Shown in pieces: positions 31,527 through 64,000 of a stretch of DNA of 64,000 nt. The notes beneath the pieces are model-generated. The model worked only from the letters and a program-made list of their open reading frames with translations. It ran no database searches and had not been told where the DNA came from. The position numbers and the translations under genes were made by a program. How positions within the stretch are numbered: position 1 is the stretch's first letter; the number at the start of each line of letters is the position of its first letter. Source of the DNA: Iphione sp. A-MEVVRFRX5 (Eukaryota); assembly GCA_976226885.1 (NCBI GenBank), contig OZ320313.1, forward strand, positions 68,696,001 to 68,760,000, given 5' to 3'.

Positions 31527-31540
31527 CTTGAATCCAACAT

Positions 31541-34519: not shown

Positions 34520-36401
34520 TGTAATATTCCCTTGCTGGGTAATAATAAGACAGATTTAACTTGGTTTTCTACTCCTTTACTGCACTGCACATGTGGTGTT
34601 ACTCCATGGCTCCTGGGTGGTGGTGTCTCACTCAATATTCACCCCTAACATGTTACCCGGTGGTACTGGTACACTACATCCCTTCCTTTCTTCAGAAACA
34701 AAACTTCCTATCATCCCTGACTTCAGATCTACTTCAATACACAGTCATGATGTCTTAAATGACCCAGTGTTCCTATACTACTGAGTTCATAACCTTCCTT
34801 TGATTTCACAGAGTACTGCTCACTGTTGGAATTAGGTGTGCTCTGTGAATCCTTTTTCTTCCCTTTCACAGAAATGAATGTTGCCTCTGCTGTTCCATCT
34901 TTTGTCTTCACTTTCTCATCCTCCTTCTTCCTTGTTCTCTCCTCCCTTGTCACTGTTCTGTCCTCTGTCTTAACAGTTGCATCCTTCAACTTCTTTTTCA
35001 TATTTTTCTGTTCTGTCCTCTGTCTTAACAGTTGCATCTTTCAACTTCTTGTTCATATTTTTCTTCCCCTTTCTCTTCCCCTTCCTTTTTGCATCTTCCT
35101 TCTCAGTTGTGCTAGAATGTTCTTGTCTGATGACATCTTCCGCACCTTTCTCACATTGGCAACATGGTAGCCTCCTCACTTGTTTGGCTCCTAGCCTAGT
35201 TGCCTCATTCACATGAGATTTCCTCTGGACCTCTTTCCAGTTCCCAATGTGAGTGGATACATTGGAGTCCTTCTGTTGAATGTCCATGTCATTCCCTTCT
35301 GCATTAATGGAATGCACTCTTGCTGACATGGGTGGTCCTACACGTAGCAAATTCAACCTCTCTGCAGTCTGTTTACCAAGTAGAGTCCTTCCATTCCCCT
35401 TGATAACAGTAAACTCATCTTGACAATGTTTCTTGCTTGCTGGACACACTATCTCAGCCTCAAATATTCCCAAAACCTCTATGGGCTTGGCTTGCCCATA
35501 CGTAAATAGCTTCTTGTTGGACAGTCGGGACACACACTTTACTCTTTTGCATTTCATCATGTTCCAGGTTGCCTTGTCCATGATGTTACAGGATGCACCT
35601 GAGTCGATCAACACAGATCTCAGGTTGACTCCTCCAACCTCCAGGTCAACCATACCATCCATCTTCTCTGCCCCTACTGCAAAGATGTAATCTCCAACCT
35701 GTCCACTGTTTGACACACCATGATTCACATGATACGTTTTTCCCTCTTCTTGGTACTTCTCCCTCTGTCGTCTCTGTCGAGTGTCTTGGCCCTTGGTGCG
35801 ACAGCATATCGCAAAATATCCCATTCTCCCACATTTGCTGCATTCTTTACCTCGAGCAGGGCATTCCTGATCCTTTGCCAAGTGATCCTTCTTGTTGCAG
35901 CAGAAACATCTCTTTCCGCTGCCATGTCCACTGCTTCCTTCTCTGGTTGCACCTCTGGCTCCCTTGTGTTCCTCCTTGTTCCCCTTTGAGAAGTTACCCT
36001 TCCTGTGTACTGCATTCACTTCAGTTGATGCCTCAGTCCCGGTCATCGACTTCATCTGTGCCTCAACTGCTTCGTAAGCACGTGCAATGTTCTCCAAGTC
36101 CTTCAATGTAGCATTCCCTGTCTTCTCCAAGAACTTGCATCTCAGCCGCTGTTCCCGACACTTGTCGATCAGCTGATCATGGATAGCCTCGTCAACATCC
36201 ATGAACTCACAGGAAACAGCCTTGTGGCGTAGGCGACATACAAACTGATCAACTGTCTCCCCAGCTCCCTGCTCTAGTTGACGGAACAGGTGCCTCTCGA
36301 ACGGTACATTGACAGTCAGTACAAAGTGTGCGTCTAGTCGATCAATACACTCCTTGAGGGACATACCCATCTCCTCAGGTACAAGAGTGTAAAACACCTC
36401 C
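34520..36401 (-). mobile_element. Internally deleted Gypsy element: gag-protease ORF joined to the post-integrase tail, PPT and a 159-bp 3' LTR
   Basis: ORF 34970-36484 has PFERHLFRQLEQ, DQLIDKC, CCHC knuckles and LIDSGASCN, then switches to a K/E-rich tail. PPT GAAGAAAGGAAGGGA precedes the LTR TGTAG...TTACA (34678 to 34520). A ~50-bp tandem duplication lies at 34955-35060. Confidence 0.85.
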
Positions 36402-36707
36402 TGTAACTGCGTGGCTGCGGCACCGCGGCATACAAGGGGTGCTGCGGCACAGGTGGATTGGACTGGTAGGGTGCAGCGGCACACCCCCGTGCGGCACTCG
36501 TAGGGGTGCTGCGGAGTAGGAGGGGTCCGGTACCCGGATGCTGAAGAGACTGGGGATGGGTATATAAGGGAGTTGGCCCCTCGGGCAGTTCAGATTACGT
36601 TTGGTGCTCACTGTTGGTGCTCACTGTTGATGCTCATAATTGCTCTTACTGAATAAACCTCATTACCTTAACTGGAGTTATGTCTTACTTGCGGAGCGGA
36701 CGTTACA
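36402..36707 (+). mobile_element. LTR (306 bp) truncating the gag 5' end; no TSD
   Basis: TGTAAC...GTTACA ends, tatataagg, AATAAA. Flanks CCTCC and CTATT differ. Confidence 0.7.
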
Positions 36708-41500: not shown

Positions 41501-44500
41501 AGTCATAGAGGTTATGTATGGAGAGAGTTTCGGTTCCGCTCTCAAATGGTTGGAATAGCCAATTTGGTCGGTAATCGATGTAGTCAGTAATAGAGACTCC
41601 ACTGTACTAGTCAGGAAGGGTGGAGGAAGGGCAGGGGGAAGGTTGGCGTGACAGCTGAGTACAGGCAGGGGACAGGTCGGGGTAGGCAAGGTGATGGCTG
41701 AGTGTACAGGCAGGTGTATGGATGGTGTGTGTGTGTGTTTTTTGTGCTGATCTCAAGGAATTCTGTCCAATTCTGTGTAAATTTTTTTTGTGCTGATTTT
41801 GAGGAATTCAGTTCAAATATGTGTGAGTTTTTTGCACTGATCATGAGGTATTCTGTCCAGTGTGAAAATTGTAACTTTTGTGTGCTGATCTGCAGGAATT
41901 GATTGAAGATTGAAGATGTTTTATTCGGAATCTCTGTTTACAATGCCAAAGGTCTTCGTCCGAACATGCGGACACCAAATACCCTGTCGAATATGTACAA
42001 AAGTAACACGTTTAGGCATTCAACATGTAGCTAGTCATTACAGCAGAGGGCTATGAGTGCAATGTCACAGATATAAGTAACCAATGAGAACAATAAACGC
42101 ATGATATAATGCAAGTGCTTCTTTTTGCTCACAGATGAAATAGGGAAAGGAGATATAATTGCAAGTGGTTCGCACTTGAACCAGGTTTTTTAGTACTGCA
42201 GATGTGCTACTTCCATAAACTCCGGTTTCAAGTTGGATTTTGACTCTGCTAAGGCTTCAGGCCCGCTGGATTCACCCAAACAACCAGTGGCAGGTCCCTC
42301 TCAACAAGATCAGGATGAAACCTTGTCTCAGTTTTTTTATCATTTAGTGACAGATGGTGATGATTCGGAGGTAGATGACTTCTTCCAGGAATTGGAAAAG
42401 GAAGTCTCGGCTGATGAGAAAATAAGTAAGAACATTGGCGCGGATATCACAGCCTTCATTAACAAAAGGCAGCTCAAACCTTGGTCGTTTGAGGATATTG
42501 AGAAAAGAGGAAATAGTGTCTTAAATCCTGACTCAAAGCAGAATATCACCGCCTGACTGCCGAGGACAATCCTCCTTCAGCCAAATTCTTATTTGGAGAC
42601 AACTTAGAGGCCACTCTGAAGAACTTGACACTGTCAGCATGCTCATCTCAAAAGTTGACAAGAACAAGCAGCAGAAGACTCCAAAGACCATACGCCAACA
42701 AGGCGGCTATTGCTACAGAGGAATAGGCTGTTTTTAGTCATACAGGGCAAACTTCCAGTACCAAGAGAACTGTATGCAGTACACTCACCAACCAATACAG
42801 CCACCACAGGCCCAGAAACAAAGACAGGATTTTCAGGTGAGGACCTCTAAAAAGTAAGTGGGGGGGAAGGTCCTCCCAAAGGTTCTCAGCAGGCAATTTG
42901 AAGAATTTTGTTGACGAGTGGAAGAGGCTAACTACAGATAAGGACATTCTGAGTGTTGTTCAAGTTAGAGTTTGTTTCTCCGCCTCCTCCAAGACCTTAC
43001 ATTAAACTGTTACAGTTGTCTGCTGCTGAAACCCTTGCCATGGACATACAAGTCAGAACTTATCGTTCAAAGGTGTCATTGTGGAAGATTATTCTCCTTC
43101 AGCCTTTCAAGCCAGGATCTTTCCTAGACCTAAGCCGGGCAGCTCTACTCGAGTCATTCTTGATTTGTCTGAGTGAATAAGTTTTTACCATATGAACACT
43201 TTAAAATGGACACATTTGATTATGTTGTTGGTGCATTGTACTCTCAGTGTTGGATGGCCAGTATTGACCTCAAGAACGCATATCATGTTGTACCTGTTCA
43301 TGAGGCTTGGCAAAAATTTTTGGCCTTTTCTGGAACAAGATTTTCTGCAGATACACAATCATGCCGTTGGGCCTCACATCGGCCCAAGACTCTTCACTGA
43401 AATTCTAAAACCGATTTTAGCTCAACTTCATGCGGCAGGTCATGATGCTATTGCCTACTTGGATGACTTGCTGATTCTAGGGCCATCCATCACTGGTTGT
43501 GTGGATTTGGTGACAGCAAGAGCTTGCCCGTTTCAGGACCTGGGGTTCTTTATCAATGGGGCCAAATCGCACCCTATACCAACTCAGAAATTGAAGTTCC
43601 TGGGATATTACTTGGAGGGTGTCCTCCCAAGGGTTCTCAGCAAGTCAAAGATCGATCAAGTGAAAGGAATGATCACGGAGCTCCTCTCCAAGCACTTGGT
43701 TCCCATCAGGCACACTGGTAGATATATTGAAGGCCAGCCAATATGGTCTCAGCCATTATAAATTCTTAGAAAAGGATAAAATTGGGTGTTAGTCAGGCAG
43801 GCAGGACAATTTGAAGGTCACATGCAAATTTCACTGCATAGCAGAAAGGACCTAGCATGGTGATTGCAGGCAGTTGATCACATCTATAGACCTATCCGGA
43901 TCCATGCACCCACAGAAACAATGGTCACGGATGCTTCAGGACGCGGTTGGGGCGTTGTGTTAGGAGCAACTTCTACAGAAGGACGGTGGCTTCCCAAGGG
44001 ATAGTTATGGTACATCAATGCCCTGGAGATTAACACTGTTTGGCTGGGGCTCAAAGCATTCTTCAGACACAGGTACAACTTTTAGTTACTGGTACGCACA
44101 GATAACACCACCGCGGTGGCTTACATCAATAAACAGGGAGGGACCAGGTCCACTCTTTGTAATAATCTGGGGTGCAAAATTTGGACGTGTCTTGAGGACA
44201 GGAGAGCTTGGGTTGTAGCCTCGTACATACCAGGCAAGCAGAATGTTGAAGCGGACTTCTTTTCATGTCATTTCAGTGAAGATGTGGAATGGAAGCTCAA
44301 TACAGAGCTGTTCCAGTATCTTGCAAAAGAGTGGGGACAACCAGACATAGAATGTTGGCTTCAAGAGCCGCAGCCCAATGGACAGATAACTGAACATGGA
44401 GGTGACGGGTAGCGCGGACGTAATTTTTATGAATTATGTCATGATGTGAATCGACCAATCAGATCGCTTAGAATTGCGACAATGTCACAATTACGTAAAA

Positions 44501-47500
44501 ATTACGACCACGCTACCCGTTACTTCAACTGCTGGTGATAGGCTCATTCAAGCCTTATATCAGCTGGAGACCAGATCCAGGTGCGTTGTTGGTGGACGCC
44601 TTTACAGTCAATTGGAGAACATTTCAATTTATTTACGTGTTTCCACCTTTCCCATTTATTTCCAGAGTCCTCCAGAAGTGGCGGCATGAAAAGACAATGA
44701 TGGTTCTCAACGTGCCGGCTTTGAAGACACATGCGTGGTATGGTCGGATCTGCCAGTATCAAACAAAGGACATGATCACATTCCCAGCCCAAAATAACAA
44801 TCTAATAAATGTGTTCAACAGCCCAGATTGTCGAGACATAAGCTCCATCTCACTCCTGGCCGTTCTCTTCTAAACATCAAAGTGGAAAGGTCTCTCACCA
44901 AGACAACATTGAGAAAGTACATGTAGAACTCTTGGAGACCATGCACTCCAGAACAAATCTATTCCTACCTGAATCGCTAGCCCACGTTTTGCGTCCTTAG
45001 AAACATTGATCCGTTGAAGCCTTCATTACAAGAAGCCCTTATGTTTCTCCATTCTTTGTTCTAGGCAGGGTTAGGTTACAGTGCAATCAACACTACCCAT
45101 AGCACCTTATCTGTTGTTATAAGATCTTTTGAAGGGGTCCCCTTTGGACAACACAAACTCACCACTAGAGTGTTAGGGAGTATTCACTAGAGTGTTAGGG
45201 AGTTCAATCTTAGACCCCGACAGGCTAGACTCAAATACACATGGGATGTGGAGATGGTACTCAATTTCCTCAAACAGTGGTTCCCTCTCCATTCGCTATC
45301 TCTTGAACAAATTTCTCTCAAGACTTCCACTCTCATTCTTCTTGCGTCCTGTGGTAAGATATAAATGGTGCATAACATTGAAGTATCAAATATCCATGAG
45401 GCGGGACAGGGCAGGGTCCAGATAAACTTTGCGTCACCCTTGAAACACAATCGCCAGGGTAAGCAACCAAATAGGATCATTCTCACCGGGTTCCCTCAAG
45501 AACCTGCCTTTGTGTTGTCACCCATTTGCAGGCTTACAGAGCAAGAACTGAAGATATCTGGGGGGACCAGGACAGACTTTTTATTAGTTATTTACCACCG
45601 TCGATAAGTCGATAACCACAGGGTCCCTTAGCAGATGGATCAAGGAAGTCATGACCAGGGCAGGCCTAGACACTCAGACTTTTAGAGCACACAGCACCAG
45701 ATCTGCTGTGGCATCCAAACTACACGCAGTGGGGATTCCGCTTTCTGACATCCTCAAAGGTGGCATGTGGAGCCATGAGAATATGTTCAAGGAATTTTAT
45801 CTCCAGCACATCATTTTTGTACGGGTCGTTTAATACGGTTACCTTACATGGTTGATTTTTTTCTCTCAGATGGAAGGTTGTCAACCATGTTACAGTATGT
45901 TGCTACTACTGCGTATTGACCGTGCTGTCCTCAAACCTGTTACCCTAAACATCTGTATATGGACTCCACCTTGCGGAGTAATGCTGACTCAAACTTGTTC
46001 AGTTACCTGAAACTTGTTGATGAGGGACTTCAAGTTTGAGGAAGTATTGTAGAGATGTACGGGTAGTGACACCTGCGGTACCGCAGCGAGATTACATGAC
46101 AGTGTACTCTGTGAACCCTGAAGTGACTAGCGGCTACGGCCCCGTAGGCATTTTACAGTGTAATGTACTTAGTGAACCTTGGGGATAGGGACGGCTACGG
46201 TACCGTAGGCGAAATTAGTGTTAAAGGTGACCTTGGACCCTGGATTCCCAGGCACCTGCTACATTGTAATTACTTGCTAGATTCTGATTGGTAAAGAACA
46301 ACTACACTTGTGATGTTGTATCCATTTTATTCCATGACGAGATACACTGTTACTATCACTGTTGGTCACATGACATGCTGGTTTAGTATAAATAAGGGCC
46401 CTGTGAGGCCAATAAAACAGTCTGCACTTGGATCTCTTGAGTGGAACTTGTTACTTTGGGAATGCTAAGCTGAACAAACCCACTTGGACTTACCACTAAG
46501 GGTGGATGCTAAGAGGGAACTACACTGGAATACTAGCAGGATAGTCAAGGCAGTACAGCAGTACACAATAGTTGGATTACTCCAAGTGGGAAAGCAAACA
46601 CGCAAATTACAGTATTACAAAGCAAGGTGGCAGTCCAGGCCCACCACCTTGGGTCTGGACTGGTGGCTTGGTCGGCCAGAGCTTTGGTTACTGAGTTGGT
46701 TATATAAACATTAATAACCCTACCCTGTCTTTCAGAGGAAGACCTGGACTGCCACTTAATGAGGTGCTCTCCAAAATCTTGTTTGTTCAGGTTTGAGTAC
46801 AGCCCGATTACTACCTCAAGGCTGATGTGACCAACTACAGATGGCGCTGCATCTCTACGTGGACTGCCACCTTGCTTCGTAATACTTCCTCAAATTTGAA
46901 GAAAATATCTCATATCATCTAATATGTTAGATTATTTTTTTCAGTTCTGGACTAAGAATGATGACCTCTTTTATACTTTTAGTGTGTCAGAAGTCTGTAA
47001 AATGTGTAAATTATTGGCCCAGGGCCCTTTCAGGCCTCCAAATGGCTCTGGACACAAAGCACACATGCAAGGAAAGGTCCTGTTGGCAGTGTTGTTAGTC
47101 ATGTTATATCGTTTTTTTCCACATGATGTCATCCGTGGTATGGGAAACAAATCTGTATGCATGGAAAGCAGTGAACAGTCATCTCATACCTCATCCAGTA
47201 CTTAAAGCGATTGAAATATGTATACAGTGTTCATTGGGTACCATTTATGCCTGTAAATGGCTACATTCATCACCCCAACCAAATGAAATGAAAACATGTG
47301 AAATGCATCCAAATACACAGGGGAACCCATCTGAAATGGGATTTACCCAGTATTGCAACATCACTGATAATACTGTGAGGCATATCAAATGCACATGTAT
47401 TTCGATATTAGCATATAAATAGAAAACTGGAAGACGCTATTTACTGATGCAGATGGTGCTACAGAAAGATCAACTTTTTTTCTGTTCTGGAAGATTCCAG

Positions 47501-50500
47501 GGTAGGTTCACGTCTATTGTATTTTAGTATTATCAGACAGGTAAGTGTTATGTGTTGTCAAATATTCTCGAGAGTGGACTATACATGTACTCTCCTCAAC
47601 CTTTTTGTTCTCACTTTTGTTTGGAGATTTGCTTCTGCTCCCCTTTGTGCCTGATGTCTGCTGAGTCATTCTGAAACCATGCCACCGCCGCCTGATCCCT
47701 TGCACCCTTGATGAGGCTTTCTTCTAGGCCCCTGTCTCGGAAGTCACATGCCAACTAGCCGAGTTATAGGTTTATTAACATCCCCCCCCGTATTCATGTC
47801 CACTCATAGTGCTGTTAAAGTGAGTGGTGGCATGACCTCCACTATTGGAGCCACTAAAGTTGTAGTTAGTAGTATGTAGTAACTACATATAGGATGTCCG
47901 TACATCAGCCAGAGAGAGTCATCCGATGTAAAACCTGAGTTGTAGTGAGTTTGGGCAGTGAAAAACTATATGAAAGGGGGACAGAGATAGGGAGAGAGAC
48001 AGAGTGACCTCCACATACATGTACTGCAGTATTCTTTTTCACTACAACTTGAAGTGAGACATGGGAGTGGCGATGTAGTACAAGATATGCCTCTGTTTGT
48101 CACAGTTAGCCAGTTGCAAGGACATTTTATTCCCAGAATAGGTCATCCACATGAAGAGAGGAGTTTTCATCCTTTAGAAAATATTACTCGTGAAATTCAA
48201 AAGAATTCACATGAGTGAACATTTTTTTTTTGTGAATTGTGGAAACCTGTAAATGCACATAGTTAATTATTCGCGAGGATAAACTTGTCCCTGCAGCCAG
48301 CTACTCAATTAGCGGCAACATTTAAATTTTGTAATATAACCTTTGTACCAGGAATAGACACAAGCAGTAGGAAGTTTGTAATAGAGGTCCCTCGTTACAA
48401 CCGGCTTTGACCGTAAATCTTCTGGCATGTTGTGTCTGACATAACGATTGTTTGATTGTGATTATTATCATTACTCATAGAGTACCGAAAAGAGAAGAGG
48501 AAAGCAGAAAGGAAAGGAAACCTGAAAGAAGCGTCACAGTTTTGTAATTTTCTTGGTGAACTTCTTGCAAAACAAGGTAAGGCAACCTCAATCTGTTTAT
48601 GGCTTTAGTACCAGAGGTGGACACTACCTGAGATATAGTCCAGGTGACAGAACTGCAAACCCACAGGCTCTTTTCGTACAGTTGTCGCTGCAGTTAGATA
48701 TACCCATGGGAGCTCTGCTTTTTCATTGACTGTCTGAACCAACAGGACACAAAGATGCTTGAGAGGAGGCTAAAGACAGATTATGGAATGGCCAAAGCAT
48801 CAAAACAATCCAGCTGTCATATCAAGATTGAATGCTCTAAGCCCTGCAAATTGGTATCCAGTTGACTTGATGACCTCGACATCAAATGCAAATGGCTTGG
48901 CGCCATCTTGAAGCCCTGCATTGATCTGTTCAATTGGTTCAGGAGCACCAGGGTAATTGAGCTCAGTTGTAATTATTGAGCTGCCTGGCAGTGCTAGAAA
49001 CAATTGGCCTAGCGCAACCAAGGCAATTGGGCTCTGCATCCTTAATCTCCCTTGGCCTGAGCCATTTGATCTTTTTGGTTGCTTCAAAAACGATACACCT
49101 CCACGAGGTCAACTTTTACATTTTCGTGCCTCTCTGCTGACACCAGCAGAGCTTTTCTCTTTTGAGTCGACAACACAGCAGGTTCCGGGGCAATTTGCTC
49201 TGAAATACTCTTCTACTTCATGAATGAAGATGCTTGACTACCAGAAATTGTCTCTGAGGTAGCATACATCTTTTTTCTGATTGACAATCTGGTAGAGTTG
49301 CTGGTGATTTCATCTCTGTTGGCACCTCTCACAATTTTCCAACAAGTCTATGATACTTGAAAAAGAGAAAAAAAGCATACTATATCTGTGCAGAACCTAA
49401 GATCTAATAATTGATAAAGTCTTCATAGAATCCATCTTGAAAACTGAACAAAAATTGATGAAAAATATGAAAAAGCAAAGCATCTAAGCTATGTCTAACC
49501 GCAGCGACAACTGTATTAAAAGTGCCCATGGGTGTTGCAGTGGATGCCACCTGGATTATTTTTCAGACATCTGTGTCCACCTTTGGTACGATGTCAATGC
49601 CACATTTCATTGGTAAGTTGATGTAAACTACTGATTTAAATTCAGTCAATAAGGATAACGTGAAGTGATAGGCCACTAAGCTATCTGGGATGTTGGGAGA
49701 ATATGAAGCTGGTTTGTCAATTTTATGACAAATGCAGTCTGATCCATTAAAAAATAAAGTACACATACTGACAAATGTGAAGCAATGTTAAGTTAAATCA
49801 TTCAGTTATGTCCCTCTATCAGTCTTGAATTGAATCTGTCGAGCTTTGTGTTTCATCAGTTTCATTTGTTTGGGAATGTATTGTCATCGCAAAGTTTGAC
49901 AGAAACTGAACCATGACATATTCCATCTTGCTACTGGAAAAGGTCGATATGAAGAAGCCATTGAAGAACACCAACAAGAGCTGCTCCTTTGTGAGGCACT
50001 GCAAGATATGATCGGCGTCGCTGTTGCAAATAGAAAGATCGGGGAGTGCTACAGTGAAAAGGGTCATTTCACCAAAGCCCTGGAACACCAGAGAAGACAT
50101 CTGCAGATTGCTCAGTCAGAAGGGGATGATGTAGAGACCCAGAGAGCCTTTGCCACCATCGGAAGAACCTATCTTTTTAAAGTAAGGATTTTGGGTTTTC
50201 AAGTTCCTTGTGGGACATTCTTTCCTTAGAAGCAGTGTGTATGACCTGCTTTTCATGTCGGAGGCACCAAGAGTTTGTCAGGATCAGAGGATACCGTGCT
50301 TATGTTTACATTTTGCAGAGCCGTGATTTTCAGTTAAGGGTTTGGCATAGTGCGTCTGTTCACTGTCATTGACAAGTAAAGCTCCTTACGTTGGAGATAA
50401 CCTTCACATCAAAATCTTGCAGTGATCTACAGTGATTTGCTCTCTGTCTATATGCAATGAAATCTGAAGAAAATACCACAGAACTTGCATAAGCAAAGGT

Positions 50501-53500
50501 GCTTGATATTGGTGGCTGGTCAAGGCTTTAACATGGTGACACCATGGAGAGAGCCGACACTGCTCCTGTACACTACCCTCGCACACCATACCATACCCCA
50601 CCCCTATGTCACCAAGCTGCATCACAAAGTAGCCCTGTTACCAATGGAGGTCATATCTGCGGTCAAAGTGTGAGGTCAGCAGATAGAATGACCTCCATTA
50701 TATGCATCCGGTCGAAACTGAAACTGGGGGAGGAGCCTATTCTTTGATCTTAGAGCCGGCATGGAGGCTGGGCCTCCAGTACCACTTCTCCTGAAACCCT
50801 ATGGGAGTACCTATGTTGGAACTCAAATCCTGATTTCTTTCAAGTTGAGTGTAAGGGGGAGGAGGCCAGAGCGGGAGGGAACAAGATAAGATTGAGTGAC
50901 AGCTCCTCAGAGAGCAGGAGGGAACTGGGTGGGGAGTGTCAAGCATGCTACTGGACCACGAGGACAAGGGGGGACTAGAGTGGGAGGGAACCGGGTGGGA
51001 GTATCAAGTACAGGCTGCTGCCGGGGTGTCTGATCTCCCGAGGGGAGGGAGCGAGAGCCAACAGGCTGCTGCTGGGGCGTCCAGTCGCACCATGACTGCG
51101 AGCAGGCAAGGGGGAGGGAGTTGGAGCCAGCAGACTGCTGCCGGGGTGTCCGGTCGCACCCTGGCTACGAACACCTGAAGGCAGGGGGCTACAGCAGGAG
51201 GGAACCCGCCACCGCTGGTCCCCGGCCCGCAAAAGTCGGCATTTTGCGTGAAATTTAGTGAGAGAACCACTGAGAGCTGCTTGGGTGCTTGAGTCAAGCT
51301 AAAAGTCGGCATATTTTGTGAAAAGTAGTGCCCCTTCACTGGGTCAGTGATTGAGAGAATATGACCTCCATATGCAGCGTTCGCTGCAGGTATCTTGTCA
51401 GGCATACGTGACCATTGTTTATAATCATTAATATATCTTCTTTATACATATATTTTTCTCCTTTTAGGCCGAATCCACCAAAGACGTCGCAGCTTCGAAG
51501 GAGGCACTTGAGAGAGCTAGATCTGCTTTCCAGCAAAGTCTGGATTGCTGTGAGAAATTGGAATCAGGAATATCACGCAAAGAATATGCAGAAATGAAGT
51601 CTAGACTGTTGTTAAATATAGGTACGATAAACAAGTTACCCTGCGTGAAAATGCTGACTGACTTTTAGAGAATGCACACACACTGATTTTTCATGAAGTT
51701 CTTTCATGAGGAATGATTTGAAGAAAACACGTAGTCTTCAATGAGTTGGTGTAATTAATATGCAGCCAAACCTCCCGACTTTTACTTTATGGTTGAAAGA
51801 ATTTTGCCTGCTTCTGGTGGCCGGTGTGATCAAAATTTTGAGTAATTTGAAGTTTTGTCTTCTAAGTAGTGAGGTCTGACTGTGTTGTTATGTAAAACAG
51901 TTCTTTTTATTGTTTCTTGATTCATTTATTTCAGGTATTGTCCTTGAACAGAAGGGCAATATAAAAAGGGCCTCTGAATTGCTGAAACAAGCTATACAAA
52001 TATCGCAGTAAGTAATGTATATATTTTACAGATGGCTATATGGTCAATGATGGCAGAAAACTGGAATTTTCTCCATTGTACAGTTACTATTCAGGGGCCA
52101 AGTAATGTATAGTAAAACCAATTTTGTTTTCCATATAGTCTGCCAATGTATTTAGGGAATGTTACCATACATTTCATGTCTGTAAAATGTTTTCATTTTT
52201 TCCTGCAAGGACACATAATCTAAAGGAGGATCTATACCGTTGTCAGCATACCCTGGCTGAGATGTTCAAGAAGCATGGACATCTTGGCCAGGCTATCCGT
52301 CTTTATGACATGGCTCTCAAATACTGCCAGTCAGTGAAGGACAAAGTGGCTGAGGTGGAGATTCTTACACAGAAGAGTTTGGTAAGCGTCGTACACGTAC
52401 ATGTAATTGGACATAGTGTACGTGGCACTTCTGTTTTCTTCTTGAAGTTGCATTACATGTATTTGTACAGAAGTAGAGTATATGTGGTGTACATGTACAT
52501 TTGAAACTTATTAACCAGATTACGTCCGTCACATAGATTTTTGTACAGATACCGGATAATCTGTTTACTCAAACAGGAAAACATAAAGTAAAATACATCC
52601 ATCCCTCAAGTTGAGTTATGGTTAATGCAGTTTTCCGGTTGTCAAGTCTCCAGATGGCAAGGTTCAACTGTAGTTGTTATGTAGCTATCACCTCTGTAGA
52701 GTCTGCCTTTATACCCAGATAAGGTGTTAGAGCTGGTCAATTCTTTTGAGGTCCAGCATTTTGGCCATATTAGACATAACTGATACATACCAGAGTGCAT
52801 TTAAAGATTACTGTCTTGCTTTCAACTTAAAAGTCATCAGGTTTGCGGTTTCAGTTCTACACACCCTACCTTTGAAGTTTGATCTGAATATCTTATTCCA
52901 GATTTATGTTCAGCTTGGTGACTTGTTTGCTGCTCAGCGTGCCATAAGGAAAGTCTACAAGAGCAGTGCCTCAAGTGAAGATACCAGAGAACGAGCGTCT
53001 ATGATTTTCAAGACTGGTAAATAGTGAATAATTGAGAATTGATCAGTTTTGTTTAATCACAAGCACCTTTGGCGCCTGCACTGGTTGGAAAGAGTGGGCA
53101 TGTAGGTTTGTGGGGGTAGTCACAGACTGGTGGGGGGGGAGAGGGGTCAAAGTACAGACTCATCTGGCCTTTTACAACCCTCGGTTCTGCTTGACTGGAC
53201 AGAGGTGGGGTACTGTTTACAAATCTGCGTAGGGATACTAAGCAGGGTTCCTACTGCACAGGGAAAACAGGGAAAATGGCCCAAAAAATTCCCTGTCCGG
53301 GAAAACACAGGGAATTTGGAAATTTGGGGCAAACACAGGGAAAAAAATTTTGAAAATCCATTTTAAAAAATCAAAAAATTGTTCATCATTAGTTGAAAAA
53401 TCATCCATATGTAATAAATTAGTAAGAAATACTGCATAGCAGTCATGAACATTAACTGCTTGTATTTTCAATGGAGGTCATATTTGCACTGGAAGTGGAG

Positions 53501-56500
53501 ATCAGCAGATAGGATGACCTCCATTAGTGGAGCCAGGAAAACCTGAAAAAGGGGGAAGGAGCCTATTCTTTGAAGTTAGAGCCAGTTTGGAGGCTGGGCC
53601 TCCAAGTACGACTAAGAAAAAGTGATGTCATGTTGCACAATCCCCCCTTTCCCCCTATAGCGGGAGGGAACTGTGGGACTCAGTGTTATATCATGTTGCA
53701 CAAGCCCCCCTCCTGCAGGGGAGATGGCCAGAGCAGGAGGGAACTGGGTGGGAGTGTCAATCACCCTGCCCTGACCACGAGCGCCCGAGGGGGAGATGGC
53801 CAGAGCGGGAGGGAACATGAGTAAGAGTATGAGTGAGAACATGAGTGAGAACATGACAATCAGTGAGAACATGAGTGAGAGTATGAATGAAACCATAAGT
53901 ATCAGTGAGAACATGAAGAGAGCACAGGTGTTAATGAGAACATGAATATGAGTGAGAACATAACAGAGTATGTGTGTGTGAGTATGAGTGTGTGAGAACA
54001 TCACTAAAAATAAGATTGAGAACATGAGTATCAGTAAGAACATGAAGAGAGCAGGAATATGAATGAGAACACGGATGTGAGTAAGAACATATTGGAGAAT
54101 ATGAACATAGAGTGACCCAGTCAAAAGGTGGGTAAAGAGAAAAAACTGTGATAACTTAGAGACTATTGTAAATAGAAGGATGGGACTTCAATGAAAATGG
54201 TCCATGGAAATGGATACAGGTGGTAGAGGGTTGTCAGGATGACCTGGTGTATGCACATGAAAAGAGAAAAACTATGATATCTTGACAACTATGAATTCAC
54301 ATGTACCATTTCAACATTATAGAGGAAGAATATGACCTCCATTTGCAGCCCTGGCTGCACCTGTTACTTGTCCTTTGACATATTATATGCTAGAGAACAA
54401 CAAACTTGGATTATAATTTGATAACTCAAAGTCCTGTTATGTACAATTATACAGAAACCAACACAGGGAAAACTGCCATGGCACAGGGAAAACTCAGGGA
54501 AAACACAGGGAATTTCAAAAATGAAATTTGAGTGGGAACCCTAAGGAAATAGTCCAATGTCATGTTGTGTTTCAACTTACCGCTGTCATAATCAAGATAA
54601 TTTAAACAGCACATTTTCTTCTACAATATTTTCACTGACCACATGAGTAAATATAAAAAATAAGTTCCCTGTCTGAAATCTCATTTGGGTGAGAGCTTTC
54701 CCCCACAACCAGACTTCTTTCGGGCAACGTGTTATATACGTAGTGTAATAACACAACAATGGAACTCTTGCAGCATAAAATTGTATTTTGCTGTATATGC
54801 TCTCCACTGTCCCGCTGTTTTCTCACCTTTAGAGGTCTGCCTGACGTTGGGACCTCTTTCTCCTTCATTAGCGCAGACTTCCATCATTAGCACTTGTCCC
54901 TTTATTGTTCCCCACCTCATAGAGAAGGGGGGGAGGACATTAGGAATGCTGCTGTCCCAACCTTCTGTCACACTCTTGTAGGTCTTATAACTCTCAAACC
55001 GTCCACTCAAAAGAACTGATTTTAATATATATTTCTATACATGGTTCTATGACACCGGGTAAATTTGATAGTAATTTAAGTATTTTAAGGATGAAATTAT
55101 GCCAATTTTACTCTTTTGCTAACATACCTACTCGATTTAGAGATTCCTTTGTATAATAACTAGTCTTTAAATGAGGTACCGGTATGATGATCCTGGCCAC
55201 AAATCCTCTTTTGATGTATGTAACAGTCAGGTTAAATAAACTGATTTAATAATAATAATAGGTCTGACAATGCACACACATGCACACACACATTCATCAA
55301 TACCTCCCTTCTACCAGTATCAGCTTGTAGCAGATGGTGCTCAGTCAGGCAGAACTGATGGTGGTCTGTCCAGTGAGGCAGAACTGAGGTTTGTGTGCTC
55401 AGTGAGGCAGAACTGAGGGTTGTAAACCTGAAGGACTTAAACAAGCCCATCCAATCACCCCAACAGAAGGTGCCAATCAAAGTGGTTGTAAAGAGACAGA
55501 GACACCACACACACACACAAACACACACACATACACACTCTGTCTCTCTCTCTTTTTCTCTTTCTCTCTCCCCTCCACCCACCTGGGCAGTTGGTGGCTG
55601 GGGACAATAGACCTCACTGGTCAACACTCTTGTTTTCTTTGAAGTTTGGCCAATTTTAAATAGCAATTTCTGGGGGAGGGAGACGGAACTGATGGGGCAA
55701 TGGGGGTGGTGGATGATGGGTTTCATGCAATTCAACGAAGAGAGGAGTTCTGTTGTCCATGAACTGGACCACAGGTGGGTGGTATTCTGCAGTAAGAGAG
55801 GGTTCCGTTTTCAGACTGGATATCAGAGGTGGGTGGGTGTCAGGAGTTATAGAAACGTGGCTGGGACCGTTGCAACAGCTCTTTACCACATACATGTATA
55901 CAGACATACTCCTGTAAAATTGAATTAATGCATATTTTTAATGCTGGGCTTGGTGCAACTCTGTCCTGTCCTCCGGTCTAAATGCATATAATGCTGGGCT
56001 TGGTGCAACTTTATCCCTCTGTCCCCCAGTCTATCTCCTTCGCCTTTCATTGTCGTTCTCCTGCCCTCCCTCTCTCCCTTGCACTCTTCCTTTTCTTCCC
56101 GTCTTCCTCTTTCTCATCCATCTCCTCCTGTGAAATGAAACACATAAGAAATTGTACAGACAAATGCATCGGTCAGTAACAAAATGTATTTGGTAAAGCA
56201 TACACATTTGTGCATTTGTTACAGTTATCATTAACTATTGTGCACAGTTATTTGTATCAGTAGCACACCAATCGATCAATTTAGTTTGTATGGTTCCCTG
56301 GAATATCAATCAAAACCCAGAGTCCCAAGTCTTGGTGATACGTTTGGCTTACGTCTGATTCTTGTTACAATCATTCAATGTTTCAGGGAGTCAGTTCCCT
56401 TCTTTAGGAGTAGGTCAGTTATTTAGTATTACTTAAGCATATCAATTATGATGAGCAAATTGACTTATGCAACTGGATCAAATTGGGGTCAAAGTTCAAG

Positions 56501-56725: not shown

Positions 56726-56891
56726 GTAAGTTCCTGTATTTATTGAAGTTGACTTATTGTACATTGTTATCGTAATACATGACCTGCACTCAGGTCTTAA
56801 AATACCTATGCTGTTAGGTGGTGTGTGTCACACAGAAAGGAAGTTTTTTTTAGTAAAAATTGGAAAAATTTAGTGGGGTGTCTTTTGATAT

Positions 56892-57896
56892 TGTAATTTA
56901 ATGGCTGACTTCCTCACTTGGTGTAATCCAACTAAGTCCAACTCGCTTAGTTACTCCACTATAATTCCAGTGATATCTTATCCAAGTCCTAACTCCAGGA
57001 TAATTCTCTGTTAAATCTCCCACTTGGTAGATCCAGCTATGTCTAGTGCTATCCTGTCTCAGTTACTTCACTGTAGTCCCAGTGCGGTTACATCCAAGTG
57101 CCAACCCTAGGTAATCCAAGTGGGTTTGTTACATCCCCAAATCAACAAGGTCCACTAGTGAGGTCCAAGTGCAAACTGTTTTATTGGCCACACAGGGCCC
57201 ATATTTATAGTCAAACTCCTGGCCATGTGATCAATACAATGTATCAGTCATGGAATAAAAAGGCTACAACATCCCAAAGATTTTTTTTGTCTACCAATCA
57301 TATTGCAGGTGCCTTGTCATCCAGGGTCCAAGGTGACCTTAAACATCCTATATGCCTGGGGTACCACAGGCCATTTAGCATAAATGACTGTGGTGCCATA
57401 GGCGGCCCTAAGCTTACTCTCCAGTACACATGCACTAAAGTCTTAGAGTTCACCAAGTACAACACAAGTGGCTGTGGTGCCACAGGCAACGTTACTATTA
57501 CAATCTATACGACTGTGGCGCCGCAGGCAACGTCACTACTAAGTCTTAGAGTTCATCAAGTACAACATAAGTGACTGTGGTGTCACAGGCAACGTTACTA
57601 CTACCACCTACACAACTGTGGTGCCACAGGCAACATTACTACTAAGTCTTAGAGTTCATCAAGTGCAACACAAGTGGCTGTGGAACCACAGGCAGTATTA
57701 CTATTACGTCTTAGAGTTCGCTAAGTACAACACGAGTGGCTGTGATGCCACAGGCGACATTACTACTAAATCCTAGAGTTCATCAAGTGCAACACAAGTG
57801 GCCGTGGAACCACAGGCAGTATTACTATTACGTCTTAGAGTTCGCTAAGTACAACACGAGTGGTTGTGGTGCCACAGGTAACATTATCACATTACA
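56892..57896 (-). repeat. 3' LTR (~1005 bp) with a tandemly expanded U3
   Basis: TG...CA ends, minus-strand TATAAATA and AATAAA near 57180-57208, tandem units actaagtcttagagttc(a/g)..aagt(a/g)caacac(a/g)agtgg at 57435-57890. Confidence 0.85.
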
Positions 57897-57959
57897 CTCT
57901 CCCCACCTTAAAAATAGCCTGCCGGGGGAAGTGAAAACCTGTTTCCCTGAGAAGTACAT

Positions 57960-58620
57960 CCTGAGCCAATATAAACCTCCATAGAGGGTAACAGTTGATC
58001 TACTAACTCCTTGGATAAATACTAGTAAATTTAGCAAAGCCTCCATAGGAGGTAATGGTCACCTAAGCAGCAAACTTTTCCTGAGTATACAAGTTAATCA
58101 TTTAATCTGGCAAAGCCTCCCTAGGAGGTAGTGATATCACAATAACCCAAAAGATCACAGATTAACATCCCAGTAACTGTAAGAGCCTTACTCTTTTTGT
58201 GGGGGTACAGTCCCCCTTTCATTTTACTGTTAACGTCCTCACTCTAACAACCCTTGAGTAGATGTGGGTAGATCTGACAAAGCCTCCGTAGGAGGTAGTA
58301 ATTGTCTAGGTAACACAAGATATCACAATAAATAAAAGATCACAGCTTAGCATTCCAGTAACCGTAACATCCCTGCTCTTTTTGTGGGGGTACAGTCCCC
58401 CTTTCATTTAACTGTTAACGTCCTCTACCTGTCCTCCGAGTACACAGGTTAAAGCTATCTAATCTGGCAAAGCCTCCATAGGAGGTAGTGATTAACAAAC
58501 AACATCAGTAACAAGGGTAAACTAGCGCAAAAAGACTCGTCCTATCACATGGCATACATCTCAACGATTTTTTTCTGGGGGTACAGTCCCCCTTTCAGTT
58601 ATACCTATCCAACATCTTTC
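57960..58620. repeat. Imperfect tandem repeats between the accessory ORF and the PPT
   Basis: Recurrent caaagcctcc(a/c/g)taggaggt and tttgtgggggtacagtccccctttc blocks. Confidence 0.8.
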
Positions 58621-58684
58621 ACAATCCACCCTGGCAGTTCCTTGTCATTACTCTGGGTGGATTCCCAGCTCCCCCCCCGTTTTC

Positions 58685-60262
58685 CTAAGCCGCGCGGGAA
58701 TCATGGGTCATTGTGGTGTCAGGGGTCGGGCATGGGGCAGAGTTAACGTCAGTCGTCGGCACTCGGATCTGAACGGGAGGTGCCCCCATACATATGTCGT
58801 ATATTGTTGGCTGTGTACTCTGCCGATGGGCGCGGACCTCCTGAACCTCACGTTGCCACCCGGGATCGTAGATTCGCGTTTTACTGGGCCCCCATCGCAT
58901 GGACTCTAGCACTCTTTCGGCGGCGTCGACGGTCTGGTTATGCGTCGAAAGTGTGGAGTCCAGTCGCCCCCAGTCTTGGGAGATAGGTAAAGACACCCCC
59001 GGCAGCAGCAGAGTAGGTCGTTGGCACAGGGGCTCCAGAAGAGTGCCGGGTAGGGCCTCCTCATCCTCCGCTAGGCACAACACCCAGGCAAGGGCTGCCC
59101 CTGCCATCAGTCGCTGCGCCCCAGTCATGTCATGCCACCGACGTGGGGGCCAGGTAATGGCCGGCGGCAGACGAACAGCCGCTGGGACCACACTGGCCCT
59201 CATGGCCGGCTGGTGAGGTCGAATGAGACCATCCAAGACGTCCCGCATCCTCCGGGACACGGGTTTCACGAACTCCGGAGGCAGATACCGTTGCACTAAT
59301 TGCATCAGGTGCCCTCCCGGCAGGGTTGGCGACGTGGGGGCGTCTCCTCCCTCCCCAGGCAGGAGAAGAGGATCGGCTGTCGCGACTGCCCCCTCCGGCT
59401 CTGTGGCTGCGCGCAGCTGTGCCAACACGGCATCAAAGTCCTCCACCTCGGGTAGGCCGGCCCGCTCCTCTCCAGATGTGTCGCCCCCTACCGGTAGGTC
59501 TGCGGGAGGTGTATACGGTACCACTGGGAGGTCCAGCTCGGGAAGGGCTGGGTTTGCCTCATCCGGTGCGCCCACCTCTGGTTCACGCTCAGGCTCGATT
59601 ACTTGGTCTGCCTGCGCCTCGGGCCCCAATGGCTCAGGGCCTTCCCCGTTCAACCCTTGTGGCTCCAGAGGGGCCGGAGGAGCTGGAGCAGGGTCGGGGA
59701 CTGGGGGATTTTGTACCTCTGGTGCGGCGTGGCCATCCCCCTCAAGACCTCCTTCTGCTCCCTCCCGTGGGGGAGAGCCCAGTCGTACATATCGGGGGAG
59801 TGGGGGTGGAGCTGCTCGTCGGGGGCACGTGGCTAAGTAGCTCATGATCTCCTCCTCCCCCAGGTACCCTCCTTCTAGTCGTCTCAGTCGGGCCTTACAT
59901 AACGCCGCTGTAAGTTCGTCATCTGGCACAGCGATAGTCTGTCCCCCCAGTGGGGCTACATCATACAAGGGCCGGTACAATTTCTCGGTCAAACCTAGCG
60001 CTACTACCCAGGGGTGGTAGTTCCTCTGGTGGGTCACCCAGTAGTGCTCATCTGTGATGTAACTGGGGCACCAGAGGCACATCATGTCCCTCCCTCGTTT
60101 CCCATGATGCTTCTCATCTAGGTGACGCTCAAAAGAGGGGCCCTTGAAGAAGGGACGCTTGCGGGGTAGACATAGCTCGCACAGCTTTACCCCTGGGGGA
60201 AGGGGTCCCTCAGATTTCCAAGTAAGCGGGAGGCGGGGCGTTGTAATTTTCTCCCGCGGCAT
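58685..60262 (-). CDS. Retrotransposon accessory ORF: two C2H2-type zinc fingers, Pro/Glu-rich linker and C-terminal helical domain (525 aa)
   Basis: ATG at 60262 in ACCATG context, no internal stops. CELC-x15-HLDEKH and CLWC-x12-HQRNYH at 60014-60181. Confidence 0.75.
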   Translation of the reverse strand: MPREKITTPRLPLTWKSEGPLPPGVKLCELCLPRKRPFFKGPSFERHLDEKHHGKRGRDMMCLWCPSYITDEHYWVTHQRNYHPWVVALGLTEKLYRPLYDVAPLGGQTIAVPDDELTAALCKARLRRLEGGYLGEEEIMSYLATCPRRAAPPPLPRYVRLGSPPREGAEGGLEGDGHAAPEVQNPPVPDPAPAPPAPLEPQGLNGEGPEPLGPEAQADQVIEPEREPEVGAPDEANPALPELDLPVVPYTPPADLPVGGDTSGEERAGLPEVEDFDAVLAQLRAATEPEGAVATADPLLLPGEGGDAPTSPTLPGGHLMQLVQRYLPPEFVKPVSRRMRDVLDGLIRPHQPAMRASVVPAAVRLPPAITWPPRRWHDMTGAQRLMAGAALAWVLCLAEDEEALPGTLLEPLCQRPTLLLPGVSLPISQDWGRLDSTLSTHNQTVDAAERVLESMRWGPSKTRIYDPGWQREVQEVRAHRQSTQPTIYDICMGAPPVQIRVPTTDVNSAPCPTPDTTMTHDSRAA

Positions 60263-61127
60263 GGTAGGCCGTCTCGGTAACCGGTCAGTCTTGGCTCGGT
60301 CAGTCGTGGCTCGGTCGGTCAGTGGCCGTCCGCAGTCAACTGTGGGGTCACAGTGACCAGGGAACACTCACCAGTCCGGGGCGGTGTGGCTGTGGGGGCA
60401 CAGTCGATAATCGCCAGACTCGTTTGGTCGGTGGTAGAGCTAGTGTCCCCCGCGGAGGTCAACTCCTATCTCTAGTCCAGTCGCTTAGTCCTCGGTGATA
60501 CCCCCTGCGGGCCCGCAGTCCAAAACAAAGTGTAGATGTCCCTGCGGGGTCACAGGCGTAATTACCAACCTGACTGTGGGGGCGCAGTCGAAGTCAGCGG
60601 CCGGCGTCCTCGTCGAAAATTTCAAGCGGTAGACCTCCCTGTGGCACCACAACCGCGATAATTCCTCTCTCCCATGCTGTCTGACGACCTTTCTCGCCTT
60701 TCTATCTCCCTCTCTTCAACTGTGCTTTCAGCCGGTGTTGGGGTTCTTGGCTTTTCCTCTCTTCACTGAATTACGGTAGAAGGGGTTCCCCAGAAACGAA
60801 AGCGAGGCTGGCGGATGTTTGGGTTGTCCGCTTCCGGGATTCCCCCCTTCTTGACTGTGGGCCCCCAGTCACCGAGTCGTTTATCGACTGTGGTACCACA
60901 GCCTCTGAATTCCTGCTTTTCTCCCATTTAACCCCCCTTTTAGAGGTTCATTCGGCCTCTCTCCCTACGAATTACGCTGAATCTGGGTAGAGATGTCCCC
61001 TCGGCCTGCGTCCTCGCAGTTCCGCTGTCGTAAGTTCCGTGTCACTGCGGTTCCACAGTCGTATCGTCAATGTGATTACGCAGTTTCCCACTCGACTGCG
61101 GTTCCCCAGTCGATTCCATCTGTTCGC

Positions 61128-61164
61128 TATATAAGAGCGTGCGATCGGCGGCTACCCGTCAGTC
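61128..61164 (+). promoter_or_regulatory. Pol II core promoter of the antisense accessory gene (TATA + Inr)
   Basis: TATATAAG at 61128-61135 and TCAGTC initiator at 61159-61164 (A at +33 from the TATA start), 33 nt upstream of ATG 61194. Confidence 0.6.
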
Positions 61165-61193
61165 CGACACTAGACCTCAGGCAGTACACATCA

Positions 61194-61458
61194 ATGGAAC
61201 TACCAGCGTACCTTGCAGGCCTCTCCCAGGGAGGGGCCTTTCTACCAGAAGACCAGGAGAGGTGCCCTCCTGTGGGAGAGGATTACTTCCCTGAAGAGCA
61301 GAAAGGTTATCCCCCCATGGAGGATAGGTAGGCACTTACATGCAGCTAGGGGCCTTCTCCAGTTACCAATTGCCATGTTGGATTTCCTGAAGCTGGTTAC
61401 TGATGTTCCTTTGGAGGTTCCAGGTGAGTTCCAGGTTTTTACAGTTACTTGTGTTGTA

Positions 61459-61504
<46 letters not shown>

Positions 61505-62226
61505 CTTCTCCTGTTCCTCTTTTCAGATCTCAGCCCCCGGATCCGTACTATCGGTTTATTGATGTGGGCACCCCTGGGCCTACGATAAGGGTGTATGGGT
61601 TGCATCCCATGTCCACCCATCCGCTGTACATCCCGGCTCCGGGCAACATTCGGTTGTATGGCCCGGATCATTGGGTGGGCATCTCTGTGCACCCGGTGAT
61701 CCAGCCAGTTCTGCCCCACAGCGACGATCCTCTGTGGTCCCGCCAGGACTCGGTATCTCCCGACCTCGGTTTGGGAGAAGTATCCAGCTACCTCGCCTCC
61801 CTCGACAACATCGAATCCAGCCACACCGATGAGGACGACTGGTCTCATTGTTCGATGACCTCCAGTCAGCTGGACCCCTGGCCCTCCTCGAACTCTGACG
61901 TCAGCGCCTCGCCCTCATATAGCTGTTCTAGTGGTGTGGCCTCGTTCACCGAGGTTGATTCTACGAGCACTTCCTCCTCCGCCACCTGTCCTCGGTCGCC
62001 CTCCCCGGAGGACACGAGCTCGCCGGTGGACACGCCATCCCGCTCGCCTGCCCCATCCAGTTCTCCTGATGTGGGGCCAGTCCTCGGGCGGGCTCCCCTC
62101 TCCTCCTGGCCGGCCGATTTCCTGTCGTCGTGGTACCCCGACCTGCAGCCCGGGGACCTGGCATGGCATCCCATCCTAATCTCCGACGAGGACGAGGATG
62201 AGGATGCCCCTCCCTCCTCTTCTTAA
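61194..62226 (+). CDS. Spliced antisense accessory gene of the retrotransposon (exons 61194-61327 and 61527-62226; 277 aa, acidic Ser/Pro-rich)
   Basis: AG|GTAGGC donor and a T38 + polypyrimidine + TTTCAG acceptor join two ORFs in frame (..MEDR|SQPPDPYY..). ATTAAA at 62350-62355 followed by a U-rich tract. Confidence 0.65.
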
Positions 62227-63122: not shown

Positions 63123-64000
63123 CTATACGGAGACCCCGCCACCGCCGTCTGGGGCGGAGAGCTCCGCCTTCTTCCGCCAGGAGATGATCCACCGGGGTAA
63201 TCGTTCCCCGCGATACAACCGTAATCGATTCCGATGTACTACTCTTGGCCTCGCTTGTTTAGAGCGTTGCACAATCAGTCGTTCATCATCCAGAGCTCGG
63301 ATAACTAGCCACGGCCCTGACCAGGGGAAGTGAATCTTCGGGCTTCTCCCTTTTGGTGGCTGTGCCTCATGGAGCCATACCACCGCCCCCACCTTCAAAG
63401 CTTCCCCCTTCATTCTCCGATCATAAGCTCGGGCCTGGGATCGAGCCGCCGTCCTCAGGTTCTTCCGGACTCTACCGTATGCTTCTTGAAGTCGTCGCAA
63501 CATTTCCCCTACCGGGTCAGGTAAGTCTTCCACCTCTGGGTTTTTCGAAGGAAGCCCGTCCATCGCATGCACCGGAAGAGTAACCTCACGTCCGAACATC
63601 AGGTAGTTCGGAGTGTACCCGGTGCTAGCTTGTGGTGAAGCCCTATACGCCATCATGAGAAAAGGGAGTGCGGTGTCCCACTCATCTTGGCTCTCGTGGC
63701 AATGTGCTTTGATCATCTTCCCCAAGGTCCGGAAGCTACGTTCAATGAACCCGTCGCTTTGCGGGTGTCGCGGGGTGGTCCTGGTCTTCTTGATGTGGAG
63801 ATAGTCACAGAGGGCCGTGATGATCTCGCTGCAGAAATTTGTTCCCTGGTCACTGTGCAGCTCGTGGAAACAACCATAGCGAGCGATTACCTCCTCGGCT
63901 AGGACCCGGGCGATCTTTGGGGCTTTCTGGTCTGGTAGGGGGAACGCCTCAAGCCACTTTGTGAAGTGATCCCCCACCATCAGGCTGTAGCGGTTTCCTC
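63123..64000 (-). CDS. Gypsy pol: integrase catalytic core and C-terminus (open to the window edge)
   Basis: GDHFTKWLEAFPL, HSDQGTNF, TTPRHPQSDGFIERSF, WDTALPFLMMAYRASPQASTGYTPNYLMFGRE, WSGPW, VVHRNRL. No stops. Confidence 0.95.
   Translation of the reverse strand, partial: GNRYSLMVGDHFTKWLEAFPLPDQKAPKIARVLAEEVIARYGCFHELHSDQGTNFCSEIITALCDYLHIKKTRTTPRHPQSDGFIERSFRTLGKMIKAHCHESQDEWDTALPFLMMAYRASPQASTGYTPNYLMFGREVTLPVHAMDGLPSKNPEVEDLPDPVGEMLRRLQEAYGRVRKNLRTAARSQARAYDRRMKGEALKVGAVVWLHEAQPPKGRSPKIHFPWSGPWLVIRALDDERLIVQRSKQARPRVVHRNRLRLYRGERLPRWIISWRKKAELSAPDGGGGVSV

Follow-up and report, generated by a model that had tools for sequence, protein, structure and literature searches.

The window analyzed here is a 64,000-nt stretch of contig OZ320313.1 from Iphione sp. 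On its forward strand it carries a solo long terminal repeat (LTR) of 564 bp with TG...CA ends (46048..46611), flanked by a GTAT target duplication (46044-46047 and 46612-46615). The length, ends and duplication bear out an earlier note on this DNA, which had described it as a solo LTR. It belongs to a Ty3/Gypsy family that we call the CTACGG class after its half-site. The three 14-bp palindromes of its U3 are where the earlier note placed them, at a spacing of 61 bp: CTGCGGTACCGCAG at 46073..46086, CTACGGCCCCGTAG at 46134..46147 and CTACGGTACCGTAG at 46195..46208. The second (CTACGG-CC-CCGTAG) and third (CTACGG-TA-CCGTAG) have the class half-site. The first had also been taken for a TAC variant; it actually reads CTGCGG-TA-CCGCAG, the type found in the related family, and is polymorphic among copies. 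The sites are followed by a putative promoter block on the same strand (46225..46416) that is common to families and was conserved across site classes when the LTRs of the classes were compared. It opens with AGGTGACC at 46225 and contains motifs that we take to be a reverse CCAAT (46287), an E-box-like CACATG (46367), a TATA box (TATAAA, 46387) and an AATAAA signal (46411). Directly upstream of the solo LTR lies a decayed element (43177-45800) with RT, RNase H-like and tyrosine-recombinase-like frames that by eye is DIRS/Ngaro-like; a related piece is found at 21944-22138.

A related full-length element of the CTGYGG class enters the window on the reverse strand. Its 3′ LTR lies at 56892..57896 and has the target duplication ATAT, and its 5′ LTR falls outside the window, in locus L035. 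Ten CTGYGG-NN-CCRCAG sites are arranged in U3 tandem repeats of 62/103-bp units (57356..57877). Inward of the LTR there is an extra sense ORF of 560 aa, stop to stop (58685..60367, reverse strand), and then ten dispersed sites of the same class that extend from this ORF to the TATA-like box of an antisense gene (60340..61109), a region likely to be a divergent internal promoter. The antisense gene (61130..62226, forward strand) starts at that TATA-like box (61130) and has a predicted intron at 61424-61526 (GTGAGT...TTTTCAG). The integrase core (Pfam rve) follows at 63300..63998 on the reverse strand. The 3′ untranslated region (57900-58620) consists of tandem repeats of about 185 bp with small inverted repeats (CCTCC-N3-GGAGG and GGGGGTACAGTCCCCC); other classes carry different repeats there. 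The element apparently sits inside an intron of a Tonsoku-like gene, as exons resembling this TPR protein by eye were seen at 49900-56730. Elsewhere in the window, exons at 12980-17981 resemble paraplegin (SPG7, an AAA metalloprotease), also by eye, and positions 4385-5733 show a self-inverted similarity of 62% over 1.35 kb, which could be what is left of an old foldback element or DNA transposon.

When up to 2 mismatches were allowed, the pattern CTRYGGTACCRYAG occurred 20 times in the window, whereas shuffled sequences gave 1.39 on average (maximum, 5; 100 shuffles), and 19 of the 20 fell inside the solo LTR or the related element at 56892-64000. The two LTRs are 68.5% identical over 416 nt, and in both the last U3 site sits directly before a common AAGGT(G/C)ACCTTGGACCCTGG block. 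Because CTGTGG..CCACAG and CTACGG..CCGTAG occupy the same place before this block, the site is orthologous and has changed in both arms. The earlier claim that the arms change together thus stands for the last U3 site but is not a general rule, since 3 of 29 other copies of the solo LTR have the hybrid CTACGG-TA-CCACAG at site 1. CpG positions differ in 13 to 29% of comparisons among solo-LTR copies versus 2 to 9%, an indirect sign of host methylation.

At least 40 relatives of the solo LTR were scored across the genome, and many of these form pairs about 10.2 kb apart. Nine LTR pairs of the CTACGG family are 97.3 to 100% identical, which marks the family as young. Its full-length copies are about 10.8 kb long. 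One of them, contained in loci L031 and L032, encodes gag with a CCHC knuckle and then pol with protease, RT, RNase H and integrase (Pfam), followed by an antisense ORF and a sense ORF of 488 aa. The hallmarks of Ty3/Gypsy elements are present: direct LTRs with TG...CA ends, 4-bp target duplications, a primer binding site (TGGTGGCAGCGGTGGGAT) and a polypurine tract ending in GGAGAG. The closest named relatives of the RT are invertebrate Gypsy-type pol proteins (52 to 62% identity). None of three extra-ORF products contained a transmembrane segment (highest 19-residue hydropathy, 1.12, 1.28 and 0.49), and neither extra ORF had any Pfam match, to env or otherwise; we therefore rejected an env-bearing, errantivirus-like identity.

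The sense ORF at 58685..60367 encodes a basic N-terminal domain that contains two C2H2-type fingers (at about 60017-60181), an acidic Pro-rich linker and a conserved C-terminal domain of about 150 aa without a recognized fold. The finger domains of the CTACGG family and of the related element in the window are 55% identical. All eight zinc ligands were invariant in 29 of 29 aligned finger-domain rows; finger 2 has the canonical 12 residues from Cys2 to His1, and finger 1 has 14 to 17. Pfam found no family in this ORF at E values up to 1. No homologue was found at E values up to 0.001 among 712 candidates (lengths of 267 to 851 only), and a profile search for relatives gave 21 matches, none below 1e-10, of which the three inspected were generic multi-C2H2 proteins. 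The 58 pattern matches in viral contigs included no relative of the ORF. Structure prediction for the protein (pLDDT 80.8) gave two beta-beta-alpha units together with additional helices, and most of its closest structural matches are DNA binders with tandem C2H2 fingers, although the matches are weak (best Foldseek E value, 0.82; best Z score, 3.5). In an Atlas comparison, the protein was placed at 0.92 with a zf-C2H2 cluster, the family being annotated on 16% of the members. For the C-terminal domain (model pLDDT 63), Foldseek gave no match at E values up to 0.001. The finger domain is under purifying selection (pN<pS in 325 of 325 pairs), and the helix codons vary synonymously inside site classes. 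A short GTAAGG...CTCAG stretch just before the start of the finger ORF in the CTACGG family (L032:2351-2392) is a possible splice donor/acceptor pair, and in several classes similar motifs immediately precede the polypurine tract.

The antisense gene, with its predicted intron, lies downstream of the opposite-strand TATA-like box in 94 of 100 elements surveyed. In the CTACGG family it is found at L032:404-1490 (reverse strand). The predicted intron is long and poly-T. Its product has a conserved domain of about 60 aa, a Ser/Pro-rich acidic tail and, in all five site classes described below, a C-terminal hydrophobic-acidic motif (for example, PIVLSD, PILISDEDE or PVVISDTDE) that we take to be SIM-like. 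It is possible that the antisense product is a counter-silencing protein.

We then surveyed the elements of the genome by four protein searches, taking the best 150 matches of each as candidates; 100 loci were picked by hand, and 12 more were added later. The site classes were defined from the same data, by an open search for spaced palindromes followed by counts. The 112 elements showed five half-site classes, CTGYGG, CTACGG, YCGTGG, TYGGGG and TGGCGG, all of them 6-2-6 inverted repeats. Among the first 100 elements, 39 were CTGYGG, 24 YCGTGG, 17 TYGGGG, 16 TGGCGG and 4 CTACGG. Clustering of the finger domains at 88% identity gave 29 subfamilies, and none of these was mixed in class. For column tests we used 26 representatives; the decayed single-copy subfamilies L149, L167 and L171 were dropped, and two decayed representatives were swapped for intact members. 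All 26 representatives have 5 to 13 sites of their own class, at non-repeated positions, within 1.25 kb upstream of the finger ORF, a stretch in which shuffling gave a mean of at most 0.1 and a maximum of 1 (30 shuffles each) and in which sites of any other class numbered at most 4. The 26 finger-ORF stretches held three site matches in total. The 12 later loci all fit the class pattern and all fell within known clades; they include a decayed locus with 1+1 sites and a third CTACGG subfamily, with the finger-2 helix D-E-Y-Y. Decayed Gypsy-type gag/pol and LINE RT sequences without arrays of the five classes were seen in the window at 23900-28000, 31500-34400, 34970-36589 and 356-2542.

In the canonical numbering of C2H2 fingers, the relevant helix positions are −1, +1, +2 and +3. 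At these positions finger 2 reads D-E-H-Y in CTGYGG elements, D-E-Y-Y in CTACGG, D/E-E/D-Q-S/T in YCGTGG, H-E-Q-S/A in TGGCGG and D-V-H-S/A in TYGGGG. Position +2 of finger 2 was the most class-diagnostic column (0.80, with the next at 0.62) among 127 finger-domain and 145 C-terminal columns, and the −1 to +3 window of finger 2 ranked first of 121 windows for class signal. This stretch is the most class-diagnostic part of the finger protein. When changes were mapped on a tree from which the helix had been left out, 7 of 12 finger-2 changes at these four positions fell between classes, compared with 108 of 672 changes elsewhere (one-sided Fisher P = 0.0012, a value that about doubles if both fingers are counted as tests). 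Class needs four switches on the finger tree, the minimum possible, in this one genome. CTGYGG subfamilies down to 50% identity still keep D-E-H-Y. The corresponding positions of the finger-1 helix gave no class signal, with 3 of 17 changes falling between classes; Ser+3 and Arg+6 of finger 1 are invariant in the 26 representatives, beside the almost invariant G at base 5 of the half-site. Finger 2 has a Trp at +4, and each canonical C2H2 finger-to-base register that we tried by hand left some class change unexplained. The earlier note had favored a family-specific factor co-evolving with its site, and the survey strongly supports this. Site class and finger-2 helix vary together rather than independently across the 26 representatives, and the CTACGG family does have a finger ORF, so neither of the results named as refuting the idea was obtained.

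The sharing of sequence between elements follows the same classes. Diverged finger subfamilies share LTR cores that are at least 93% identical (48 subfamily pairs), and integrases are nearly identical between finger subfamilies in 27 pairs, in both cases only within a class. Elements of one backbone also have nearly identical antisense proteins. Backbones of different classes are 57 to 74% (LTR) and 62 to 70% (integrase) identical, and this divergence alone could bar most cross-class recombination. One finger subfamily occurs on two LTR types that are 66% alike, both of which carry YCGTGG sites, a case that divergence alone does not cover. At loci L100 to L199, finger alleles of 50 to 88% identity were seen in backbones that match at 97 to 99% in LTR, integrase and antisense gene; these are perhaps old alleles in swept backbones, diversifying under small-RNA pressure.

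These patterns suggest that the finger protein, likely as a dimer, binds the palindromes and that it probably switches on first the internal promoter and later the LTR. A low basal activity of the divergent internal promoter would produce some finger protein, which would bind the internal sites and set up a positive feedback that also drives the SIM-bearing antisense protein. The finger protein would then bind the U3 sites, yielding more genomic RNA and perhaps opposing methylation there. A helix change would favor changes at all sites, one arm after the other, and repeat duplication and LTR copying would spread them; in this way both arms could end up changed without base pairing. We are more tentative about the full scheme, in which four helix residues would set five orthogonal finger-palindrome pairs, finger alleles would be exchanged only among matching backbones and the SIM-bearing partner would counter SUMO-dependent silencing.

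We infer activation rather than repression as the direction of effect from the position of the sites and by analogy with the known systems discussed below. The co-variation speaks to binding and not to effect, and the C-terminal domain has no recognized fold, so that the finger protein might bind its sites and yet repress or limit the element as a form of copy-number control, or act nontranscriptionally, for example, by tethering DNA ends for integration. This is unlikely, given that the TATA box of the LTR follows the U3 sites at a distance of 180 to 315 bp and that the internal sites fill the interval from the finger ORF to just upstream of the TATA-like box on the opposite strand, locations where activators are expected. 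The families stay young and numerous, and the protein has an acidic Pro-rich linker, both of which also argue against repression or tethering. Tethering fits poorly with internal sites that are far from the DNA ends.

Activation by the element's own finger protein also has to be weighed against binding of the sites by host factors, RUNX-like or other dimeric ones, with the finger residues tracking the motif through shared ancestry alone. We consider this rather improbable, although only four class switches are available for judging it. The RUNX consensus is TGYGGT. Its core is absent from CTACGG, in agreement with the earlier note, and even in the CTGYGG class only 34 of 112 arms have a T following TGYGG; RUNX is therefore not the driver, and we rejected a RUNX enhancer core for the CTGTGG class too. 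Five half-sites with one geometry would need five host factors of equal spacing, and the class signal concentrates in four helix positions that had been set beforehand as the test. Outside the two elements, the window has a single class site (one mismatch, 36415), even though it holds other LTR elements. Genome-wide, CTACGG-NN-CCGTAG is not private to the family, with 336 sites against 120 for a control, and of 16 sites sampled outside these LTRs, 14 lay in copies of an unrelated MITE-like repeat, about 315 bp long, that has a longer palindrome. The presence of the same 14-bp core in this repeat favors a host factor; the likeness may reflect coincidence, cross-talk or a common host factor. Copies of the repeat were seen at L215:707-1027, L226:744-1060 and others of loci L212 to L227. 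Its terminal inverted repeats begin with GGCGGTGTACACATG, and with its TWA-like flanks it is presumably Harbinger-like; it contains several ACGT-CTACGG-AT-CCGTAG-ACGT copies. A further point for host factors is that the palindromes of plant Sireviruses have been tentatively ascribed to them (PMC2829016).

Compared with binding by an encoded or a host protein, neutral origin of the palindromes, as a by-product of tandem duplication and LTR homogenization, is very improbable. The U3 sites do sit in 61- to 62-bp repeats, and some internal sites lie in a duplication of about 208 bp seen by eye. However, the three U3 units of the solo LTR are merely 31 to 32/61 identical, yet each has kept its site. 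In the 29 other LTR copies, which are related to one another so that the counts are not independent, arm bases outside CpG differ in 17 of 696 comparisons versus 381 of 4,453 in the U3 flanks. The internal class equals the LTR class in 83 of 83 callable elements (17 of the 100 were not callable in both regions), and the two sets of sites are about 3 kb apart in unrelated context. This agreement and the internal site counts largely rule out neutral duplication.

The geometry of the internal sites also points to a protein. The spacer is 2 bp in 229 sites, and spacers of 0, 1, 3, 4 and 6 bp occur in 8 sites or fewer (8 at 3 bp). A 5-bp spacer occurs in 35 sites, 33 of them in the TGGCGG class, and these are likely to be self-overlaps. 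A partner arm accompanies 358 of 405 exact half-sites; 355 of the 358 arms carry G at base 5, base 4 is tolerant and the spacer sequence is free. Perfect symmetry was seen in 67 of the 229 sites; 33 others deviate by a single G-T wobble, 88 by one nonpairing mismatch and 41 by more than one difference. The constraint thus falls on half-site sequence and spacing. The earlier note had read the covariation of the arms as selection on symmetry, which is at odds with 162 imperfect sites of 229 and a fixed spacer. The fixed 2-bp spacer and the 67 of 229 perfect sites fit a dimeric protein site and do not fit a hairpin. The other suggestion of the earlier note, DNA or RNA hairpins or cruciforms kept by selection on pairing, is scarcely credible and is largely ruled out by these counts: one of three sites with flanks did fold better than 200 of 200 shuffles (z = −3.6), but the other two were unremarkable (z = −1.3 and −1.0), a 2-bp spacer is too short for a loop, nonpairing mismatches outnumber wobbles (88 versus 33), hybrid arms exist and each element keeps one sequence at many unrelated positions.

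The activation proposed here for the finger protein resembles that by the foamy virus protein Tas (Bel1), whose accessory gene lies between pol and the 3′ LTR and which, according to PMC7390438, binds the internal promoter and U3, creates positive feedback and activates in a virus-species-specific manner. The Iphione elements likewise have an extra gene between pol and the 3′ LTR and the same class of site internally and in U3. According to the same paper, the Tas targets in its two promoters show little sequence relatedness, whereas in the Iphione elements a single clear palindrome is found in both regions, the protein has two C2H2 fingers, the element is an env-less Ty3/Gypsy and the activity is a prediction. 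With no Pfam family in the finger ORF, we rejected membership in the Tas family; the likeness is one of working only.

Among plant DNA transposons, VANC of the Arabidopsis VANDAL elements (Mutator-like) recognizes family-specific short motifs with which it co-evolves; these motifs are nonpalindromic and in one orientation, and demethylation is shown by experiment (PMC5735166). TnpA of Spm elements is a comparable element-encoded system (bioRxiv 10.64898/2026.08.24.746577). Both, as portrayed there, share with our elements an encoded protein, family-specific motifs dense in noncoding regions and tandem repeats, protein-motif co-evolution and the presence of the motif in unrelated elements (cross-talk in VANC/TnpA). 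Unlike these transposons, which in those texts have no C2H2 pair, the Iphione elements are retrotransposons and their specificity maps to a finger helix; we therefore rejected VANC/TnpA membership, the finger ORF having no Pfam family.

Other partial parallels come from retrotransposons and from host proteins. Sirevirus RM palindromes are family specific, have a CGG-CCG core, lie upstream of the LTR TATA and of the extra ORF and are missing from the linker of elements without that ORF; the paper names no binding factor (PMC2829016). The palindromes studied here also have a GG...CC core and cluster upstream of the LTR TATA and of the extra ORF. Sireviruses are described there as plant Ty1/copia elements with an env-like extra ORF, whereas the Iphione ORF lacks a transmembrane segment and looks like the factor itself. 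Grande (gene23), RIRE2 and Retand have conserved ORFs between pol and the 3′ LTR with a proposed accessory role; the extra-ORF roles are mostly undetermined according to PMC7264820, where the plant antisense extra ORF has its own upstream promoter. The Iphione elements share the sense and antisense extra ORFs but differ in having zinc fingers and site-protein co-variation, neither of which was seen in that review. The C. elegans HIM-8/ZIM proteins were the top two Foldseek rows for the finger model, a nonsignificant match (E values, 0.82 to 1.0). According to PMC11605055 they are host meiotic proteins with two atypical C2H2 fingers and a C-terminal helical unit, each paralogue reading a clustered short motif. 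The residues with which they contact bases stay conserved from one paralogue to the next, whereas the helix residues of the Iphione fingers change with the motif.

Host factors are generally regarded as what drives the transcription of LTR retrotransposons. The literature that we searched, with few subscription journals and no Repbase reports, contained no report of a self-encoded finger factor with family-specific sites in an LTR retrotransposon. Self-activation by an element-encoded factor, known from plant DNA transposons and foamy viruses, is likely to operate in this group of Ty3/Gypsy elements as well. Because the extra ORF comes with a predicted target, five specificity variants and named residues, its role is directly testable. 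If the proposal is true, retrotransposon families would be split into regulatory units without cross-activation, and the Iphione elements would represent, among retrotransposons, the equivalent of Tas and VANC and provide a natural two-finger recognition code. It would also hint that the Sirevirus palindromes are read by the so-called env-like ORF, acting as a trans factor.
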